IMG/VR virus record: IMGVR_UViG_2645727970_000011
Location: 1 to 35,266 of that record
Length of the DNA: 35,266 nucleotides
Reading direction: 5' to 3' (one strand)
DNA from: a virus
Lineage: Duplodnaviria; Heunggongvirae; Uroviricota; Caudoviricetes
In this document: positions 204 through 35,266 of the stretch, piece after piece
Layout of the letters: each line of letters starts with the position of its first letter
Numbering within the stretch: the stretch's first letter is position 1
Made by a program: the position numbers and the translations under genes
The notes under the pieces: generated by a model
What the model saw: only the letters and a program-made list of their open reading frames with translations
Told to the model about the DNA's origin: nothing
The model's database searches: none

Positions 204-1172
204 TTAGTAGGTTATTTTTGTTGCGAATACTTCGCCTTTTACGATGGCTGTTATGATATTTTTAGCAACATCTTCTGATGCGCCAACCTTGATAAGGTCA
301 GCAAGTATTTTGTTATTTACTTCTTTCCGGTGAGCTTTATCCTTTGCTCTGCGCTCTTCTTCGTCCTTGATTCTTTTTTCTTCTGCTATTCTGGCTTGCT
401 CTTTTGCTTCAGCCTCGCGCCGGATTCGTTCAGCCTCCTCCTGTGCTTTTCGGCGTTCTGCTTCAATTGCCGCCTGCTTTTCTCTTTCAGCTCGTTCTGC
501 TGCCTCTTTTGCTTCGCGCTGTGCTCGTTGCTCGGCTTCAATGCGTTCACGCTCTGCACGTTCCGCTGCGGCCTTAGCTTCTGCTTCTCGCCTTGCTGCT
601 GCTTCAATTTCGGCTTTTGCCTTTGCTTCGGCTTCTGCTCTGGCTTTCTCTTCAGCTTCTCTTTTTAAGCGTTCTTCATGCTCTCGCTTTTCCTGCTCCG
701 CTTTGAGTCTTGCCTCTTCTCTTTGGCGGTCAAATTCGCGATCCATCAAAATCGCTATTTCATGGTCAGACTCAATTTGCTTTGCGAGAGCTTCAGCTGC
801 TGCCTTAGCTTCTTCTTCGGCTTTAATCCGCGCCTGTTCTTCCTCATAATCAGTAAGAGGCTGGCGCGCCTTGGCTTTCAGTTCATCAAGGCGATCGCGC
901 ACTGTCTTGCGGTTAGCATCAATTAGCTTTGGAATTTCCTTCAGTTCAGCAACAAGGTCTTTACCAAGACCATCGAGATATGTTTTCGTCTGCGCAACTT
1001 TATACGCCAGAGAAGCGATCTCCTTTCTGCCCTTTGCCGTTGTGATATCAGGCACAAAGGACATAACTTCACGTTCAACCTTTTGAAGGATTTCTTCAAT
1101 CTGGTCGGCAGACTGAAATACAGTCATTGCATTTGCTTTTTCAATAACAACTAAATCTGTTACTTCACTCAT
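204..1172 (-). CDS. Hypothetical highly charged coiled-coil protein (322 aa) of the pL operon
   Basis: Track ORF; central ~200 aa is E/A/K/R-rich repeat (AEEKARAEAEAKAKAEIEAAARREAEAKAAAERAERERIEAEQRAQREAKEAAERAEREKQ) between non-repetitive N- and C-terminal domains; GGAGG-type SD upstream of the ATG at 1172. Confidence 0.75.
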   Translation of the reverse strand: MSEVTDLVVIEKANAMTVFQSADQIEEILQKVEREVMSFVPDITTAKGRKEIASLAYKVAQTKTYLDGLGKDLVAELKEIPKLIDANRKTVRDRLDELKAKARQPLTDYEEEQARIKAEEEAKAAAEALAKQIESDHEIAILMDREFDRQREEARLKAEQEKREHEERLKREAEEKARAEAEAKAKAEIEAAARREAEAKAAAERAERERIEAEQRAQREAKEAAERAEREKQAAIEAERRKAQEEAERIRREAEAKEQARIAEEKRIKDEEERRAKDKAHRKEVNNKILADLIKVGASEDVAKNIITAIVKGEVFATKITY

Positions 1173-1207: not shown

Positions 1208-1519
1208 TCAGGCTGCTGAGGTTTCTTCTTTCAGGCTTTCGATATATTTACGTGGGTCGTCGTAACATTGGCATTCGCTGTACCAATCTACCCAGCGATC
1301 CGTAAGCCCCATCTCTGATAAATCTTCATCAGTAATGCTCTCATCCCACATCTCAAGGCCGTTAGCATTGCAGTAGTCAGGCTTGATATTGTTGTCATAC
1401 TGAAAGGCATCATAATCAGCCAGTGCATCCATCAGGCGAACACCCTCTTCAACACTTGCCACTTCTACAATGAACGGCTTCATAGGAACTTGCGGGATAT
1501 GCCAGACACGTAATTTCAT
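1208..1519 (-). CDS. Hypothetical acidic protein (103 aa)
   Basis: Track ORF starting at ATG 1519 with a GGAGG SD just upstream (complement of 1524..1528); no recognisable family. Confidence 0.6.
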   Translation of the reverse strand: MKLRVWHIPQVPMKPFIVEVASVEEGVRLMDALADYDAFQYDNNIKPDYCNANGLEMWDESITDEDLSEMGLTDRWVDWYSECQCYDDPRKYIESLKEETSAA

Positions 1520-1531
1520 ATTTCCTCCGTC

Positions 1532-1558
1532 AAAAAAATGCCCTCACACTGGAGGGCA
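1532..1558 (-). terminator. Rho-independent terminator on the minus strand
   Basis: Minus strand reads a 7-bp stem (tgccctc / gagggca, plus-strand 1539..1545 and 1552..1558) with 6-nt loop followed by a run of seven U (plus-strand A7 at 1532..1538). Confidence 0.7.
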
Positions 1559-1619
1559 AAGAAGATTTCCAATAATCAGAACAAGTCGGCTCCTGTTTAG
1601 TTACGAGCGACATTGCTCC

Positions 1620-1647
1620 GTGTATTCACTCGTTGGAATGAATACAC
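1620..1647. other. Intergenic hairpin (9-bp stem, 10-nt loop)
   Basis: gtgtattca (1620..1628) pairs with tgaatacac (1639..1647); sits just downstream of the 156-aa gene; no U-tract on either strand. Confidence 0.4.
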
Positions 1648-1661
1648 AGTGCTTATTCGTA

Positions 1662-2132
1662 CTAATAAAACACCCAGTTTTCTGTTTCTTGGTTGTGTCC
1701 AAAGTTATATTCAATATCTGGTGTTGATGTATCAATATTTTTCATCCCATCAACAAGAGTTGATACAACAGCCAAATCTTGTTTTATTCTCATTAAATGG
1801 TATTTCTTCCGACGCAATAAACTTTCAATAGCAAGTTTCTTCGTTGGGAATGCAAAAGATCTTTCTGCATTTTTTGCTACTTTCTTAATTGCATATCTAT
1901 TTCTCCTTTGTTTCCATTCCTGTAACCACTGATTTGGTGCTGGTTTAAAATCAACAATCCAATGCGCAGGAACCAACCATGCATAATGCTCTGTCTGATG
2001 AAAAGCTATATATTGAAGTGCGAATATTTTGATTCCATCTTCTTCAACTGTCGCTTGGAATCTCCAGAAAACAGGCATTCCATTATGTTCAGTTTCTGAT
2101 TCAGGAAAAGGTACGCTCCATGATTTTGTCAT
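1662..2132 (-). CDS. Hypothetical protein (156 aa), AT-rich moron candidate
   Basis: Track ORF; GAGGTG SD before the ATG at 2132; visibly AT-rich compared with neighbouring genes; flanked by minus-strand terminators at 2181..2206 and 1532..1558. Confidence 0.65.
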   Translation of the reverse strand: MTKSWSVPFPESETEHNGMPVFWRFQATVEEDGIKIFALQYIAFHQTEHYAWLVPAHWIVDFKPAPNQWLQEWKQRRNRYAIKKVAKNAERSFAFPTKKLAIESLLRRKKYHLMRIKQDLAVVSTLVDGMKNIDTSTPDIEYNFGHNQETENWVFY

Positions 2133-2180
2133 ATCTCACCTCAAATAATTCAGTGCAGTGTTTATTCTGTTGTTTATGCC

Positions 2181-2206
2181 AAAAATAAAGGCCGACTATG
2201 CGGCCT
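2181..2206 (-). terminator. Rho-independent terminator on the minus strand, overlapping the stop of the upstream gene
   Basis: aggccg (2189..2194) / cggcct (2201..2206) stem with 6-nt loop, followed on the minus strand by uuauuuuu (plus-strand 2181..2188). Confidence 0.6.
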
Positions 2207-2819
2207 CGGAAGGAAGTCCAATCATCTTATTCAAATCTTCTACCCGTAAAGCAGGAAGTGCTGTACTTGCTTTATCTGCTTCTTTTGGTAGCAATTCTTT
2301 GCTTTCAGGCCAAACTTCAATAAGTCGCTTAACTGTTGTGACTGAGTTCAAAGCAGCCCATACATTTGATTCGATATCCTTTTTCTTGGCTTCAAGTTTT
2401 TGTTGCAATGCGCAGATTTCATCAAACCTTTTTGTTATTTCGTGTTCTGCGTCAAACATGCATTTATCTTTTTCTGGGGTGGGGAGCAATATATCTTCAC
2501 CGTTGCCGTCTTTTCCGTATGAATGCCAGCCAACCCTTCTTCCAGATACAGTCAGATAAATCGAAGCAGAACGAACATCGCATGAGTAAAATGAACATCC
2601 CATCTTCTCAAGTTCTTCACTTATAGCTGCTAACTTGGATGATAACCGATCCACTTCCTCAGTTTTCTTTTTACCGCCAAACGCAATAACTCTGGCGTCA
2701 AGTGCAAGCTGGTTCTTTAACTTTGTTACTTCTTCAAGTTCAGTGAAAACCCCAGACTTAATTAAAGCGTTACGAGCGATTTCCTCTTTCATTCTCGTAG
2801 TTAAGCGGATTGATGACAT
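2196..2819 (-). CDS. Hypothetical protein (~207 aa) of the pL operon
   Basis: Track ORF 2196..2834 begins with TTG; an in-frame ATG at 2819 has a GAGG SD 7 nt upstream, giving MSSIRLTTRMKEEIARNA...; no recognised family. Confidence 0.6.
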   Translation of the reverse strand: MSSIRLTTRMKEEIARNALIKSGVFTELEEVTKLKNQLALDARVIAFGGKKKTEEVDRLSSKLAAISEELEKMGCSFYSCDVRSASIYLTVSGRRVGWHSYGKDGNGEDILLPTPEKDKCMFDAEHEITKRFDEICALQQKLEAKKKDIESNVWAALNSVTTVKRLIEVWPESKELLPKEADKASTALPALRVEDLNKMIGLPSEAA

Positions 2820-2955
2820 ATTAATTCCTCTCAAATAAGTGGTTTGCTGCCTAATTTCATTTTCTGGCGACCAACACAGGTCACACCCATTTCACTGCGT
2901 GGCTTGCGGTAGTAAATACGGTTATTTATGTCATTAAAAACCAGCGTGAGCGTGG

Positions 2956-3222
2956 TTATTTTTTCTTTCCAAGAGATGGAAGCCCTCCAGAATAATCTGG
3001 ACCACTTGAACGATGCATTTGATACAATATTGCGTTTTTGTTGGCGTTTAGTGGCTTTGTTGCGAAAGAAATTTTTTCTCGTTTTACATCTCTTATCATC
3101 ATCAACTCACGTTCTGATGCTTTTGGATGATAATCATTGATATGCTTCCATGCTGCCTTGGCGCTGAATTTTCTTCCACATAAAGGGCAATAGCATTTAT
3201 ATGATACTTGTTTGCTAGTCAT
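2956..3222 (-). CDS. Small C2H2-type zinc-finger-like protein (88 aa)
   Basis: Translation contains YKCYCPLCGRKFSAKAAWKHINDYH, i.e. C-x2-C-x12-H-x4-H spacing of a classical C2H2 finger; the ATG at 3222 lies 2 nt after the N stop, so it is co-transcribed from pL. Confidence 0.6.
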   Translation of the reverse strand: MTSKQVSYKCYCPLCGRKFSAKAAWKHINDYHPKASERELMMIRDVKREKISFATKPLNANKNAILYQMHRSSGPDYSGGLPSLGKKK

Positions 3223-3224
3223 TT

Positions 3225-3533
3225 CTATCTCGCCGTAATTGATTTCATTGACCTGTAACCAGCAGCATACAGTGCAACTTCAGGCAAACAAACGCTTCCG
3301 CCATTCGCATCTGTATTTGATTTACTGATGATGCCGAGTGATATTGCTTTTTCAGAAAGACTTAAACGCTTTCTCGGTTCTTCCTGAACAGCTTCCTCAC
3401 TGTCTGTGCCGAAGATCGAATCGATGATGTTGCAGATGGAATCACGCTCGATAGCCAGCTTTCTGCGCCGCTCATGACGGCGAGTTTTGGCATTTCCTGC
3501 AAATGTTGATTTTCCGTACACGATTACCGTCAT
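3225..3533 (-). CDS. N: N-type transcription antiterminator (P22 gene 24-like), 102 aa
   Basis: Internal ATG at 3533 with GAGGA SD 7 nt upstream; arginine-rich motif GNAKTRRHERRRKLAIER matches the P22 N boxB-binding peptide as I recall it; the track ORF extends upstream from a GTG and that N-terminal extension is rejected. Confidence 0.85.
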   Translation of the reverse strand: MTVIVYGKSTFAGNAKTRRHERRRKLAIERDSICNIIDSIFGTDSEEAVQEEPRKRLSLSEKAISLGIISKSNTDANGGSVCLPEVALYAAGYRSMKSITAR

Positions 3534-3652
3534 GATGTTTTCCTCATGTGAAATGGCTTTGGTGGTGATGCGCCAGGTGCTGATCTTCTGGTTGCTGTCG
3601 TTGCAGCTGCAATTCACATCACCGCCAAACCCATCTCGTTTGGTATCTGTTT

Positions 3653-3687
3653 GCGCTTTGTCAGCGCCCCATCGAAGTTAAAGAGCC
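3653..3687 (-). promoter_or_regulatory. nutL site: boxA plus boxB
   Basis: Minus strand reads GGCTCTTTAAC (boxA-like, 3677..3687) then GCGCTGACAAAGCGC (3653..3667), the P22-type boxB-left hairpin from memory; positioned between pL and N. Confidence 0.8.
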
Positions 3688-3886: not shown

Positions 3887-4546
3887 TTAACTAAATGTCT
3901 CTTCAGGCCACTGGCTGGCGATAACTTTCCCTACTACGGAACAGCTATCATTGCATGGGATCATTGGATATTGCGGGTTTAGTGGTTGTAGGAACACCTG
4001 ACCGCTATCCCTGATCAGTTTCTTGAAGGTAAACTCGTCACCACCAAGTCTGGCTATGCAGAAATCACCTGGCTCAACAGCCTGCTCAGGGTCAACGAGA
4101 ATTAACATCCCGTCAGGAAAGCTTGGCTTGGATCCTGTTGGTGCGGTCATGGAATTACCTTCAACTTCAAGCCAAAACGCACAATCACTGGCTTTTTTGG
4201 TTGTGCTGACCCATCTCTCCGCATCGCCTTTGGTAAAGGTTCTAAGCTCAGGCGAGAACATCCCGGCCTGAACATGAGAAAAAACAGGGTACTCATATTG
4301 TTTTTTAACGGGGGCAGATGAGTATTCGCCAACAGGTGAAAATGTACCGTCGTGGTTGAATGAGACGTTATCAATACCAAGGTATTTAAACACCACACCA
4401 ATCTCGTCAAGAGATGGATGACGAGATCCGCGCAACCAGTGACCAATTCCACCCTGCGTCATACCAAGCTCTTCAGCTAACTTCTCTTGAGTTATGCCGA
4501 GTTCTTTCATTCTGGATCTAGCCAGTTCATACCATTTCATTTTCAT
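3887..4546 (-). CDS. cI: CI-type prophage repressor (HTH plus LexA-like S24 autopeptidase domain), 219 aa
   Basis: Start taken at the MKMKW ATG (4546) rather than the longer track ORF; N-terminal HTH ([22 protein letters not shown]), Ala-Gly cleavage site (HVQAGMF), GNSM catalytic serine motif and downstream Lys; divergent from cro. Confidence 0.85.
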
Positions 4547-4657
4547 ATCCTTATTATTACGCTCTGTACTAAAACCATCCATGCACAAGATGTATTTTTT
4601 GTTTGCATTCCAAAAGTACATGTCGTATTATTGTTTCATGGTTACTATGGAGGGCAT
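4547..4657. promoter_or_regulatory. oR/pR/pRM divergent control region
   Basis: Rightward pR candidate: TTGCAT (4603..4608), 17-bp spacer, TATTAT (4626..4631), then GGAGGG SD and cro ATG at 4658; AGTAC-containing operator-like motifs at about 4562..4576 and 4611..4625. pRM not resolved. Confidence 0.6.
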
Positions 4658-4958: not shown

Positions 4959-4982
4959 ATTTACCTATGGAAATAGTAAGAA

Positions 4983-5279
4983 ATGGAACAAACAAGTTAC
5001 AGCAAACTATCACAGAGCGACGTTGATCGCGCAGAAACAGATTTACTCATCAACCTGTCAACGCTTACCCAGCGCGGTCTGGCAAAGATGATTGGCTGTC
5101 ATGAATCGAAGATAAGCAGAACGGACTGGAGATTTATTGCTTCGGTCTTGTGTGCTTTTGGAATGGCATCAGACATCAGTCCAATTAGCAGGGCTTTTAA
5201 GTATGCGCTTGATGGACTCACCAATAAAAAACGCCCGGCGGCAACCGAGCGTTCTGAACAAATCCAGATGGAATTCTGA
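4983..5279 (+). CDS. cII: CII transcriptional activator (98 aa)
   Basis: C-terminal [20 protein letters not shown] matches the lambda CII C-terminus as I recall it; HTH region [14 protein letters not shown]; located cro-distal as in lambda. Confidence 0.85.
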
Positions 5280-5458: not shown

Positions 5459-6350
5459 CATATCTAATCTAGCCGAAGCCAGAGAGGCCAGAAGGCTACA
5501 ACGACCGCATCAAAGCAGCGGTAAGGGGTATGCCTTGCTGCACCGTAAAATTATGGATGTGCCGTTTTACAAGGACGCAGAAGCAGCGCATCTGTGGGTT
5601 CACTTAATCCTCAAAGCAAAGCATACGCCTGAGTATGTAATGACTGACGCAGGAGAAATTCTGGTAGGCAAAGGGAAGCTACTTGGCGGTAGAAACTCTC
5701 TGGCGTTTGAAACAGGACTCAAACCAGATCGCGTTCAGTACCTGCTTAGAAAGTTCAAAAAACTCGGCATGATTGACTGGGTTTCACACGGTAAATTCTC
5801 AGTTTTCTCGGTAGAGAAATATGACGATTATCAGTCAAATTTTGTACCAGCAGATTACCAGCAAATTACCACCTCAAAGCCAGCAATACCAATGCCTGTA
5901 AGCAATACAGTACCAGCAGATTACCAGCAAATTACCACAGATAAAGAATATAATAATATTATCTCTAATACTGACGTATTAGAGAGTGCCACAGCAGACA
6001 AAAAGTCTGACAAGAAAAAACCTTCCGTCAGCTGTCAGGATGTTGTCGATGCTTACCACGAAATCCTTCCTGAAGCGCCAAGAATCCGCGCACTGAATGA
6101 CAAGCGTAAAAACCAGATCCGAACGTTCTGGCGCAAAGCCGGAGTTATAACCCGCCAGCTTGACGGGCATGGGTTCTCGATGCAGGACTGGAGAAATTAT
6201 TTGAGCTACGTAGGCGAAAATTGCCGATGGATGTTCGAAGAGCGCCCAAACCATCAACGCGGAACTGTCTGGCACAAAAAGGGATTTGATTTCCTGCTTA
6301 ACGATAATACCTACCTGAAAGTTCGTGAGGGTGAACACGATGACCGATAA
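5451..6350 (+). CDS. O: Replication initiator, O-like (P22 gene 18-like), 299 aa
   Basis: Track ORF; position after cII; contains the in-frame repeat [10 protein letters not shown] x2 that corresponds to DNA iterons; followed by an overlapping helicase gene. Confidence 0.7.
5844..5975. repeat. ori-like element inside the O gene: iterons plus AT-rich tract
   Basis: 29-bp repeat gtaccagcagattaccagcaaattaccac at 5844..5872 and 5910..5938 (each holding two ACCAGCARATT sub-units), followed by agataaagaatataataatattatctctaata. Confidence 0.7.
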
Positions 6351-12223: not shown

Positions 12224-12298
12224 GGGTCAGTCGTATAAAGGTCATTACGGAAGGCTGTTAACCTTCTTATCGTGGTTCGAGTCCACGCTGTCCCGCCA
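12224..12298 (+). tRNA. tRNA-Asn (anticodon GUU), 75 nt including encoded CCA
   Basis: Hand-folded cloverleaf: acceptor GGGTCAG / CTGTCCC (one U-U mismatch), anticodon stem GAAGG / CCTTC with loop CTGTTAA, T-arm CGTGG-TTCGAGT-CCACG, discriminator G and CCA. Not run through tRNAscan. Confidence 0.6.
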
Positions 12299-12303
12299 AA
12301 CAT

Positions 12304-12379
12304 GCTGGTTTAGCTCCAATGGTAGAGCGGTCGCCTTGTAAGCGAATGGGTAGCGGTTCAAGTCCGTTAACCAGCACCA
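12304..12379 (+). tRNA. tRNA-Thr (anticodon UGU), 76 nt including encoded CCA
   Basis: Hand-folded cloverleaf: perfect 7-bp acceptor GCTGGTT / AACCAGC, D-arm GCTC-CAATGGTA-GAGC, anticodon loop CTTGTAA, T-arm AGCGG-TTCAAGT-CCGTT, discriminator A and CCA. Confidence 0.65.
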
Positions 12380-30856: not shown

Positions 30857-30924
30857 AGTTGAAGCCCCAACTGCGGGAACAGTCAGGGCTTCGGTATCAA
30901 CAAATCGGATTAGGAAATATTGAC

Positions 30925-31903: not shown

Positions 31904-34033
31904 ATGACAGACATTACAGCCAATGTGATCGTATCAATGCCTTCGCAACTCTTCACTATGGCACGTTCTTTTAAAGCCGTAGCCAATGGTAAAATTTATA
32001 TCGGAAAAATTGACACTGATCCGGTAAATCCTGAAAACCGGATTCAGGTTTATGTGGAGAACGAAGATGGTTCTCACGTTCCTGTTTCGCAACCAATCAT
32101 CATTAACGCTGCCGGATATCCGGTATATAACGGACAGATTGCCAAATTCGTTACCGTGCAAGGCCATTCTATGGCTGTTTATGATGCATATGGTGCGCAG
32201 CAGTTTTATTTTCCTAATGTGTTGAAGTATGATCCTGATCAGTTTAGTTTGAAGCTATCCATGCCTGATGGGGCAGGTGAAATTGGATATCAATATAGAA
32301 ATAATGTTACATCTTCTTACCGAAGAGTAAACGACAAGCTTGATGAGCATGTCAGTATTCTGGATTTTCATAGAAATGTTGATGGTGGGTTAATCCTTCC
32401 TGCACAGAATGTTGATAGTAGACCATTCTTTGAGCGAGCACTTGTATACATTGAATCAATAGGCGGTGGCACTATTTATGTACCGGCTGGAAAATACTAT
32501 TTAAATTCATACAGTGAAATAGGGATCATAGGCACTGTCTTTAATGCAATATTGCCACTTTGCGATAATGTTAAAATTTTATTGGATACAGCGGCAGAAA
32601 TAGTTGTTGGTACTTTTTTTGATGACAAGCCTTTCCAGTTGTTTTTTGGTTCTTCGCCTTTGAAACCAAATCTTGTAGACGCTGTAAATAATGTTGTCAT
32701 AGAAGGTGGTACAATTAGCTTTAGTGGTTATAGCAGTATGATGAGAACAGCACCACTAAACAGAATTGCATTGCAGACAGGAAATATAGATAATCTTCGC
32801 ATATCAAATGTTACCTTTCGTGATGGTGACTTAACAAACGCTTTAGCGATAGGATACAAAAATCTAGGCAAATATGCAGTTGTTGAGAATTGCAACTTTA
32901 TTGACCTTATTCAGAACGGAATGAATAACGATCATAGTAGTATCTACCTTAATGCGTCATACTCTACAATTAATAATTGCAACTTTATTTCCACGATAGA
33001 TAAAGGAAGGAAGATCGCTTGTGCTGTTGAGTTGCATAAATCTTTCAATAGTTGGATTGGTGGTAATGTTGATGGCTATACACGTGGTGCTTTTATAAAC
33101 GCTATTGATACTGAATCATCTCTTGTAGAAAACACCAGAATTGAATCAGTTACCGCTAGAATACTACACCAGTTTGTAGCGTACTCGTTCGGTTCTAATG
33201 GGGTTATAAGAAATAGTCTTGTTTCAGGAAATAATGTAACAACTCTTGCGAGAAGTTCATCCGATACAGATCCTTCAGAATTTGGACCTTGCAGTCTCTG
33301 CGGTTGGGTGTCATATGGTAGTTTTGCAAATGCAGAAGGCCTAAATATCGTAGTTGAAAATAATACATACATTGTTGATGAATCAGTACAAGATTCATAT
33401 AGTTGCGTATTTTATGCAATCGCAAATGTTTCAGGTGTTACTGTTCGTAGAAACAGTGTTGGAGCGAGAACTTTTTTCTACAACCCAACCCCATCACTAA
33501 ATCTTTACAATTGCCATTTTTATGAAAACAGGTTTGAGGAATCGTATGTACAGAGCGGTTCAGAAAGATTTTTATATGATCTTAACTGTAATCGTATTTC
33601 TCAAAGCACTTTCGAAGCATTTGTTCCAATAAAAACAACTGCACTGACAGGAGTTATGAGGATTGACCCATCTACGCTCGGTCCGCAGAATCGTTTTGTT
33701 GTCGATACTCAGAATACAGATAATATTGAACACCCATTTATTACAAATTTGCCAGGTTTGCTCGGGCAGGATGGTACAACTTACTCATATCCGCAAAAAT
33801 GCGATGTCAACATCGGAGTTGGTTCTACACCTGTCCTATCTGTGATAAGTCCGGAAATAAGCACTGTAGACAGAGGACAGATTCTTAACAACGCGAACCT
33901 TCCATCTGGTTATGTCGCTCCGTCGTCGTTAATGAAGTACGATTCTACGCTTACAGGAGCTGGTGTCACAGTATCAGGGACGCCATCCGGTAATTATCAT
34001 GACGTGAGGATTCTACTGATAAGAGAACGTTAG
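31904..34033 (+). CDS. Tailspike: P22/HK620-type head-binding N-terminal domain plus divergent receptor-binding domain (709 aa)
   Basis: N-terminal ~115 aa ([64 protein letters not shown]...VLKYDPDQF) match the conserved tailspike head-binding domain from memory; the remainder is AT-rich and unrelated to the P22 sequence I recall. Confidence 0.85.
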
Positions 34034-34108
34034 ATAGGTCTTGCGCAGGGACGCGCAAATCATTCGGGATTGCAAGGCTTTGTGCTCTTCGATAGTGGTT
34101 AAGGTGGT

Positions 34109-35266
34109 TCACTCCACCTTCTCATCAAGCCAATCCGCCCACCACTGCATCATTTCTCTGCGCTTATCGAGATACTGAGCATGGTTGTAAATACCGCGCA
34201 CAGATCCGCCGTTGGCATGTGCCAGTTGCACTTCAATAGCGTCAGCAGGCCATTCGTGCTCGTTCATAATTGTGCTGAATTCATGCCTGAATCCGTGACC
34301 GCTTTCCAGACCCTCATAGCCGATTTGTTTGATCACAAGCAATACCGCGTTCTCGCAGATTGGCTTCTTCTTATCGTTGCGCCCGGCAAAAACAAACTCT
34401 GAGACTGGTTTGGTGATTGAGCTTAGCGTAGTGAGAAGTTCAACCACCTGGTCTGACATCGGGACCACATGAATTTTGCGTCCCTTCATCACACTGGCGT
34501 CGATGGTGATAATCCTGTTTTCAAAATCGACGTTCTTCCATAGCATGGAACGAAGCTCTTTCGTTCTTAGGGCAGTGTAGCGTAAAACTTTGGTCGCAAT
34601 GAGCGATACGATACTTCCTGAAAATGTTGCCAGTGCTTTGTTGAATGCAGGGATCTGGTCTGCAGGAAGAAACGGGAAGTTCTTCTTGCGGTATCCCTTC
34701 ATGGCGTCAGCAAGGTCAGGTGCCGGGTTATATTTAGCCCTACCAGTGACAATAGCGTAACGGAAAACCTCGCCGCATCTTCTGCGTGCTTTGTTGGCTC
34801 GCTCCATTGCGCCGCGATCTTCAAATCTGCGGATTACTTCCAGCAGTTGCATCGGCTCAATATCCTGAATTTCAAGACCGCCGATGATGGGTAAAATGTC
34901 GTCATCAAACATTTTGGCAAGTTCAGTTGCATAGCCTACTGACCAGACTTGCTTCTTGTGCTCGTACCATTCCTTGTAAATCGCACTAAAGGAATTGTTG
35001 TTAGACGAAGCCTTTTTCGCTTTTACCGGATCGATGCCAACCGAGATGTCTTTCCTCGCAGTCCATGCTTTATCCCTTGCCTCCTGCAAAGTCATAAGCG
35101 GATATTTTCCGACGGTCAGGATTTTCTCCTTACCGTCAATCTTGTAGCGAAGCTGCCATACCTTTTTCCCTGATACAGGGACATAAAGGTACAGGCCATT
35201 ACCATCGAGAAGGCGGTATGGTTTTTCTTTCGGCTTTGCTGCTTCAATCTGCTTAACGGTGAGCAT
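34109..35266 (-). CDS. int: Tyrosine integrase, P4-type (385 aa)
   Basis: ATG is exactly the last three bases of the window; N-terminal arm-binding-like domain (LTVKQIEAAKPKEKPYRLLDGNGLYLYV) and C-terminal catalytic region with conserved R, H-x-x-R and terminal Y (GIYNHAQY). Confidence 0.85.
   Translation of the reverse strand: MLTVKQIEAAKPKEKPYRLLDGNGLYLYVPVSGKKVWQLRYKIDGKEKILTVGKYPLMTLQEARDKAWTARKDISVGIDPVKAKKASSNNNSFSAIYKEWYEHKKQVWSVGYATELAKMFDDDILPIIGGLEIQDIEPMQLLEVIRRFEDRGAMERANKARRRCGEVFRYAIVTGRAKYNPAPDLADAMKGYRKKNFPFLPADQIPAFNKALATFSGSIVSLIATKVLRYTALRTKELRSMLWKNVDFENRIITIDASVMKGRKIHVVPMSDQVVELLTTLSSITKPVSEFVFAGRNDKKKPICENAVLLVIKQIGYEGLESGHGFRHEFSTIMNEHEWPADAIEVQLAHANGGSVRGIYNHAQYLDKRREMMQWWADWLDEKVE

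Follow-up and report, generated by a model that had tools for sequence, protein, structure and literature searches.

The 35,266-nt genome of a P22-like, lambdoid temperate phage (IMG/VR record IMGVR_UViG_2645727970_000011, positions 1 to 35,266; this whole stretch is the window analyzed here) carries, among its early-left genes on the minus strand, an AT-rich open reading frame (ORF) for a 156-aa protein of the HK97 gp45 family. A sequence-only reading of the window had taken this gene, with a terminator on either side and an extra hairpin downstream, for a self-insulated moron. Comparison with related phages leads us to a different view: both terminators and the hairpin belong to the phage backbone, and the gene is probably a promoterless passenger in an older module rather than a self-contained moron. 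The gene is near-identical to HK97 gene 45, and the structures downstream are the known small RNA (sRNA) PreS and its terminator tL2a, so that the locus is already known as sequence and is largely explained. The main value of the analysis is therefore corrective. What looks like a self-insulated moron appears to be a promoterless ORF in an existing tandem-terminator/sRNA module, and since its insulation comes from the landing site, terminator bracketing alone is no evidence of autonomy.

The locus is made up of the following parts, listed in the direction of transcription, with folding free energies (dG) where they apply.

2181-2207, minus strand: terminator T1, a 7-bp stem (2207-2188) followed by UUAUUUUU, the T-run reaching 2181; dG -11.0 kcal/mol
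2157-2180, minus strand: conserved spacer between T1 and the hairpin, GGCATAAACAACAGAATAAACACT, as in uninterrupted phages
2151-2156, minus strand: GCACTG, left junction repeat, from the sequence and alignments
2133-2150, minus strand: cassette leader AATTATTTGAGGTGAGAT, 18 nt, carrying GAGGTGA; nothing further upstream moves with the gene
1662-2132, minus strand: ORF of the HK97 gp45 family, 156 aa, matched by phrog_1636
within 1647-2150, minus strand: cassette trailer TACGAATAAGCACTG, 15 nt, from the alignment with the O157:H7 2-6-2 prophage
1647-1652, minus strand: GCACTG, right junction repeat, from the sequence and alignments
1618-1649, minus strand: perfect 14-bp hairpin; dG -18.8 kcal/mol, z = -6.3
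1532-1619, minus strand: homologue of the PreS/LPR1 sRNA, 88 nt including tL2a, by sequence identity to lambda
1532-1558, minus strand: tL2a, a 7-bp GC-rich stem (1558-1539) and seven U (1538-1532); dG -12.3 kcal/mol, z = -3.5

The gene sits on an exact 504-nt indel between sequences that are otherwise adjacent (window 1647-2150, minus strand, or alternatively 1653-2156, owing to a 6-nt repeat). The indel was defined by alignment with a prophage of Escherichia coli O157:H7 2-6-2; lambda, mEp234 and a prophage of E. coli NCCP15648 are likewise uninterrupted. In the O157:H7 2-6-2 prophage the end of the upstream Nmad5 ('nucleotide modification associated domain 5') gene, T1 and the spacer are as in the window, but the hairpin follows at once, with no ORF in between. 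It matches the window through '...AATAAATACTGCACTG', save one substitution (AATAAATACTG vs AATAAACACTG), and goes on with 'TGTATTCATTCC...'. Lambda, mEp234 and the NCCP15648 prophage run contiguously from T1 (hairpin and TTTATTTTT) through GGCATAAAYAACAGAATAAACACTGCACTG and TGTATTCATTCC... (hairpin) into PreS; in the window the backbone breaks off after ...CACTGCACTG (2160-2151) and picks up again at TGTATTC (from 1646 downward). This presence/absence polymorphism on an otherwise identical backbone upholds the part of the sequence-only reading that saw extra DNA of foreign composition.

A second set of comparisons defines the unit that moves. Identity with HK97, 933W and H-19B starts 17 nt before the ATG, at TTATTTGAGGTGAGATATG (the ribosome-binding site), and continues through the downstream terminator, and the left cassette boundary agrees within 2 nt across the two different contexts. 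In HK97, 933W and H-19B the gene follows the antiterminator gene N directly, which shows that the upstream terminator is not part of the unit.

How the gene and the module are distributed was assessed by searching 5,426 complete E. coli genomes with the cassette and its 3' region. The PreS element was present in 2,238 of them, and in 1,390 T1 and the hairpin were uninterrupted. The gp45 gene was found in 563 genomes, directly after N as in HK97 in 466 (83% of carriers) and behind Nmad5 and T1 as in the window in 75. The remaining matching genomes (∼1,700) share only the last ∼120 nt (window 1534-1652), without the gene. Among phage records, 325 have the ∼120-nt element, lambda included, and 83 have the gene, mostly Shiga toxin (Stx)-converting phages. 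Two features that had been assigned to the gene are thus reassigned. The insulated single-gene layout dissolves into backbone, both terminators and the hairpin abutting without the gene in the 1,390 genomes, in lambda and in mEp234; and the strong downstream terminator, read as the gene's own, is tL2a, the 3' end of PreS, which occurs gene-free in lambda and the ∼1,700 genomes.

That the T1-hairpin-PreS module is conserved backbone is clear from its sequence: T1, the hairpin and tL2a are kept at 95–100% identity across hundreds of phage records and thousands of E. coli genomes. A terminator scan by itself is weak evidence (10 sites against 5.6 ± 2.5 expected in 5 kb), but folding energies and conservation confirm both terminators and the extra hairpin much as first described. 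T1 is annotated as a rho-independent terminator in mEp234, and the TAG stop of the Nmad5 gene falls in its loop. None of 200 shuffles folds as well as the 14-bp hairpin, which has exact matches in lambda, HK97, 933W, H-19B, mEp234, phi24B and two E. coli prophages and may be a processing or stability element.

By contrast, the segment from N to T1 is a variable slot for accessory genes, since ral, Nmad5 or unrelated hypothetical genes precede T1 in other prophages; in lambda it holds the anti-restriction gene ral. The stop codon of these differing upstream genes (ral, Nmad5, others) sits in the T1 loop each time. T1 is a good hairpin here, in mEp234 and in NCCP15648 (-11 kcal/mol); that of lambda (34059-34091; 860-892 in our locus L007) is degenerate, at -3.8 kcal/mol no better than shuffles.

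The 3' part of the module is identified through lambda. LPR1, since renamed PreS, is an Hfq-dependent sRNA encoded between ea10 and ral; it is ∼88 nt long, is processed to ∼68 nt, has as its 3' end the pL-operon terminator tL2a, and activates dnaN translation (bioRxiv 10.1101/2024.10.31.621285). It goes undetected in lysogens, becomes visible 10 min after induction, and was reported in 2,537 genomes, a homologue being called at ≥92% identity to lambda LPR1 (bioRxiv 10.1101/2024.10.31.621285). Window 1532-1619 is identical to lambda 34012-33925 at 86 of 88 positions (97.7%) on the pL strand, where the lambda element lies between ral (34087-34287) and ea10 (33536-33904). The window element thus exceeds the authors' identity cutoff, shares the early-left location, and ends in a rho-independent terminator with a U-tail. 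Counted from the 3' base of the hairpin, the U-run ends after 88 nt, in agreement with the reported LPR1 size of ∼88 nt, which places the hairpin immediately 5' of PreS. Judged by sequence, then, 1532-1619 is a PreS homologue, with Hfq binding and dnaN activation known from the lambda study. Rfam gave no match to the 3' region of the gene and has no PreS model; the identification comes from the literature. Other prophage sRNAs were considered and rejected: AgvB/AsxR and PasA-D map to late (pR') or structural regions, not to pL.

The same uninterrupted backbone could in principle be derived rather than original, if the gene were ancestral between T1 and the hairpin and the lambda-type arrangement had arisen by deletion between short GCACTG / GAATAA repeats. 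The segment does lie between short direct repeats, GAATAAACACTGCACTG and GAATAAGCACTG at its two ends, which fit a deletion or an insertion alike. We nonetheless consider deletion improbable. The uninterrupted form is 18 times commoner than the window type (1,390 vs 75 genomes), the segment, at 35% GC, is distinct from the backbone, and the same left boundary recurs beside N in HK97-type phages, as would be expected of a transferable cassette.

Repeats of another kind were noted in a metagenomic lambdoid phage (our locus L005), where nearly the same ∼30-nt sequence stands on either side of a gp45 homologue of 73% identity (4960-5003 and 5484-5522). The last part of each copy is the ribosome-binding site and start codon of the gene that follows (CGTGGACGCAGCAGA...AAGAGGTGAGTATG). 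The repeat looks like a gene-boundary 'linker' that could mediate cassette exchange.

The passenger reading also draws on the lack of a promoter. A consensus scan found no sigma-70 promoter near the gene, and none between T1 and the ATG (2133-2187). A position weight matrix (PWM) scan of the 370 nt upstream of the gene gave a best site of 6.97, a score matched or exceeded by ∼0.06% of all positions, against 12.78 for pL; all candidates lay upstream of T1. The check proposed with the sequence-only reading, promoter prediction on the minus strand in 2133..2180, accordingly gave no candidate, and the cassette leader offers only 18 nt. In HK97, no terminator separates gene 45 from N. In the diverged homologues of a Pectobacterium prophage and the metagenomic lambdoid phage a terminator lies only about 30–60 nt ahead of the start codon, leaving no room for a promoter.

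These results bear directly on the alternative of a true autonomous moron, in which a hidden promoter, within the leader or just ahead of it, would express the gene from the prophage for lysogenic conversion, exclusion or defence. The segment is AT-rich foreign DNA with terminators on both sides, an AT-rich leader could hide a weak promoter, and the region from N to gene 17 holds sieB in lambda, by its annotation, and in P22. SieB is a membrane protein, and its gene is expressed from the prophage. Against this stand the absence of a promoter-like site from T1 to the ATG, with just 18 nt of cassette ahead of the ATG; the assignment of the terminators to the backbone; the position directly after N in 83% of carrier genomes; the 30–60 nt between terminator and ATG in the Pectobacterium and metagenomic homologues; and the location just upstream of PreS, which goes undetected in lambda lysogens. 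Moreover, the protein has no membrane segment, unlike exclusion proteins of the SieB type, and it has structural relatives in phages of diverse hosts, among them phiAxp-3 and RG-2014, which we take to be N4-like virulent phages. An autonomous moron therefore seems to us an unlikely explanation.

Measured against the usual definition of a moron, the earlier reading stands in part. Extra DNA, deviant base composition and an accessory hotspot are all there. A promoter and a factor-independent terminator of the gene's own are not: from the sequence none of the former is predicted, and the terminator present is that of tL2a/PreS.

The composition of the gene is indeed deviant. The ORF (1662..2132, minus strand), with a Shine-Dalgarno sequence GAGGTGA 5 nt from the ATG, has 35.2% GC and 25.5% GC at third codon positions, against a window mean of 47.0% (standard deviation 4.5%, 471-nt windows); only 0.75% of 471-nt windows reach so low a GC. 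The description of the gene as AT-rich thus holds, and uniform composition is refuted. Contrast with the neighbours is smaller (Nmad5 gene 40.7%, zinc-finger-like ORF 36.7%, gp17 homologue 45.8%). The other equally AT-rich windows, at about 32400-32800 (plus strand), fall within the tailspike gene (31904-34033; 709 aa), in its C-terminal part. AT-rich DNA gives rise to many short chance ORFs on both strands, and we asked of this one whether it could be such a chance frame. Conservation already refutes that idea: homologues match over the full length at identities as low as 55%, and the profile family has 87 representatives. There are, besides, the strong Shine-Dalgarno sequence and an AlphaFold model with a predicted local distance difference test score (pLDDT) of 95. 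We give it practically no credence.

The protein matches the phrog_1636 profile ('unknown function') over residues 1–156 of 156 (E = 2.3e-111). It is 98–99% identical to HK97 Gp45, 933W NP_049479, phi24B vb_24B_11c and an unannotated ORF of H-19B (98% to HK97 Gp45). No Pfam, NCBIfam or PADLOC family was found for it, the best PADLOC match, Cas1_II (E = 0.018, 12 bits), being at chance level, and a Pfam search relaxed to E ≤ 5 over 82 family members gave only scattered chance matches. The sequence-only reading had recognized no family, and for these three databases it was right; phrog_1636 (HK97 gp45), the only named match, is uncharacterized. Searches of the PDB with the single protein and with a profile returned nothing under E = 0.027. 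Against 1.84 billion representative proteins, a profile search brought up 87 relatives (about 130–165 aa), all named 'hypothetical protein'. Literature searches under the name, accession, locus tag or PHROG id of HK97 gp45 turned up no relevant paper.

AlphaFold gave a pLDDT of 95.2 and a predicted template modeling score of 0.82 with an 82-sequence alignment, compared with a pLDDT of 57 with 22 close homologues. The predicted fold has a three-stranded antiparallel sheet (residues 19–55), short helices, a short strand, a 33-residue helix (98–130) and a conserved C-terminal tail. As modeled, it resembles only uncharacterized proteins of Erwinia, Achromobacter, Delftia, Rhizobium and Cellulophaga phages. 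The protein is basic (isoelectric point 9.07), with 18 K/R in residues 61–131 and acidic ends, and has no membrane segment, the maximum 19-residue Kyte-Doolittle mean being 0.56. SieB-type exclusion was rejected as a candidate function; there is no hydrophobic segment and no Pfam or PHROG match to SieB. Across the 82 relatives only G33, T47, K87 and A101 are conserved at ≥90%, none of them typically catalytic, and the family alignment shows no catalytic-looking constellation. A basic/hydrophobic pattern, RFAFxTKxxAxxSLxxRK, is kept in the family.

All homologues with readable context lie in early operons. They stand directly after N; between the immunity region and int, where they close the left operon ahead of xis/int; or, in a Vibrio phage, after a cro-like gene. 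Neighborhoods of the distant homologues hold mainly hypothetical early genes and provide no firm functional link. Tentatively, we picture a small, basic protein without enzymatic activity that binds nucleic acid or a host protein and acts in early lytic host takeover or counter-defence and not in lysogenic conversion.

A more specific proposal is that the protein would belong, with Nmad5 or a methyltransferase, to a module for DNA modification or anti-restriction and be a functional counterpart of Ral, which uses the same slot. Nmad5 adjoins the gene here; a gp45-family gene of Vibrio phage OM837731 is three genes from an Nmad5 gene (our locus L013, 6448-7080); C5 DNA methyltransferase genes lie 2–5 genes upstream of distant homologues (loci L018, L019 and L020); and lambda ral occupies the equivalent position before T1. 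However, most copies, including those of HK97, 933W and H-19B, have neither gene nearby, which leaves the link to DNA modification a weak lead. Nmad5 also occurs before T1 without gp45, early-left operons are rich in such genes so that co-occurrence may be positional only, and the gene is missing from the supplements of two published accessory-gene screens. We regard membership in such a module as doubtful.

The favored reading, of a promoterless passenger, implies the following sequence of events. A cassette with neither promoter nor terminator of its own would have dropped into a pL module made up of T1, a ∼30-nt spacer, the 14-bp hairpin and PreS/tL2a. As no promoter comes with the insertion, expression would follow the insertion site. 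In the window the gene lies behind T1 and, to judge from this arrangement, would be made only when N-modified RNA polymerase reads through from pL, as a delayed-early gene. In HK97, 933W and H-19B the cassette would instead be co-transcribed with N as an immediate-early gene. The gp45 mRNA would run on into the hairpin and PreS, making PreS in effect its 3' untranslated region. In HK97, 933W and this phage, then, the message that ends in PreS would be that of gp45, not that of ral. By analogy, the timing of lambda PreS suggests, as slight evidence, that expression is early lytic rather than lysogenic.

Several points weigh against this reading. Insertion here, as opposed to deletion elsewhere, is inferred from frequency, composition and the coincidence of boundaries. 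A weak or non-sigma-70 promoter may yet be present, as far as can be judged from the DNA. Production of PreS from a longer transcript, as in lambda, is assumed. For the protein, the functional class is drawn only from charge, absent catalytic conservation and genomic position, and a high pLDDT does not validate a modeled fold that has no solved relative.

The gp45 gene is encoded beside N in most Stx-converting phages and in HK97, and is present in about 10% of complete E. coli genomes. As an early gene it is thus widespread in Stx phages, a medically relevant group, and its product has a confidently predicted fold with no solved or annotated relative. A further and more speculative idea is that the family represents a phage-specific fold that serves early in counter-defence or host takeover, perhaps against restriction as Ral does, while its mRNA doubles as PreS precursor. 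If true, a single early transcript would supply two effectors, one a protein and the other an RNA, the replication-boosting PreS.

The surrounding genes place the locus in an N-antiterminated pL operon, as the sequence-only reading had proposed; a pL-like promoter, nutL and N are all present.

3887-4621, minus strand: cI
3761-3733, minus strand: pL-like promoter, TTGACT-17-TACTAT, from the consensus scan, with the top PWM score in the pL region (12.78)
3653-3686, minus strand: nutL, with boxA GCTCTTTAAC and boxB GCGCTGACAAAGCGC; one match, 0 in 100 shuffles
3225-3536, minus strand: N antiterminator gene (PF25694, E = 6.7e-37)
2956-3222, minus strand: zinc-finger-like ORF, 88 aa, directly after N
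2196-2822, minus strand: Nmad5-family gene, 208 aa (PF18757, E = 6e-71)
1208-1519, minus strand: P22 gp17 homologue, the downstream neighbor (PF17420, E = 1.6e-55)
204-1172, minus strand: coiled-coil protein, 322 aa, directly downstream of the gp17 homologue

The two nutL box sequences are, we presume, of the P22 type. The 88-aa ORF has weak C2H2/C2HC zinc-finger matches (best E = 0.0011) and belongs to the uncharacterized family phrog_20899. Beyond the module, the ribosome-binding site of the gp17 homologue begins 4 nt past the PreS U-run. The 322-aa protein has a long Glu/Ala/Lys/Arg-rich coiled-coil region, is similar to Sf6 gene 33, and carries the annotation 'TolA protein' in related phages (phrog_1376/21365). 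The sar RNA, tailspike and integrase genes are at the far end of the window, the sar antisense RNA (RF00262, 71.6 bits) at 30857-30923 (minus strand) in a P22-type immI/ant region. Two adjoining tRNA genes, Asn(GTT) and Thr(TGT), were found at 12224-12379 (plus strand).

The closest known counterparts are HK97 gene 45 (AAF31125), 933W ST933Wp19 (NP_049479) and phi24B vb_24B_11c, which share the protein, the Shine-Dalgarno leader, the hairpin and PreS/tL2a. They differ in that the gene comes straight after N with no intervening terminator, whereas here it lies behind Nmad5 and T1. Lambda PreS shares the early-left location, the GC-rich stem and the U-tail, but follows ral and the degenerate T1 (-3.8 kcal/mol), while the element here follows the gp45 ORF and a T1 that is a good hairpin. 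The classical lambdoid morons, such as HK97 gene 15, are reportedly defined by Juhala et al. in 2000 in the sense used here. Like them, the gp45 gene is an extra gene of deviant composition between sequences contiguous in relatives; unlike them, it has no predicted promoter of its own, and the terminator downstream predates it. Finally, lambda ral and the sieB genes of lambda and P22 occupy the same hypervariable pL slot, and the ral stop codon lies in the T1 loop just as the Nmad5 stop does here. The gp45 protein shows no sequence or predicted structural similarity to the products of ral and sieB, being a soluble, basic protein of 156 aa compared with the 66 aa of Ral.

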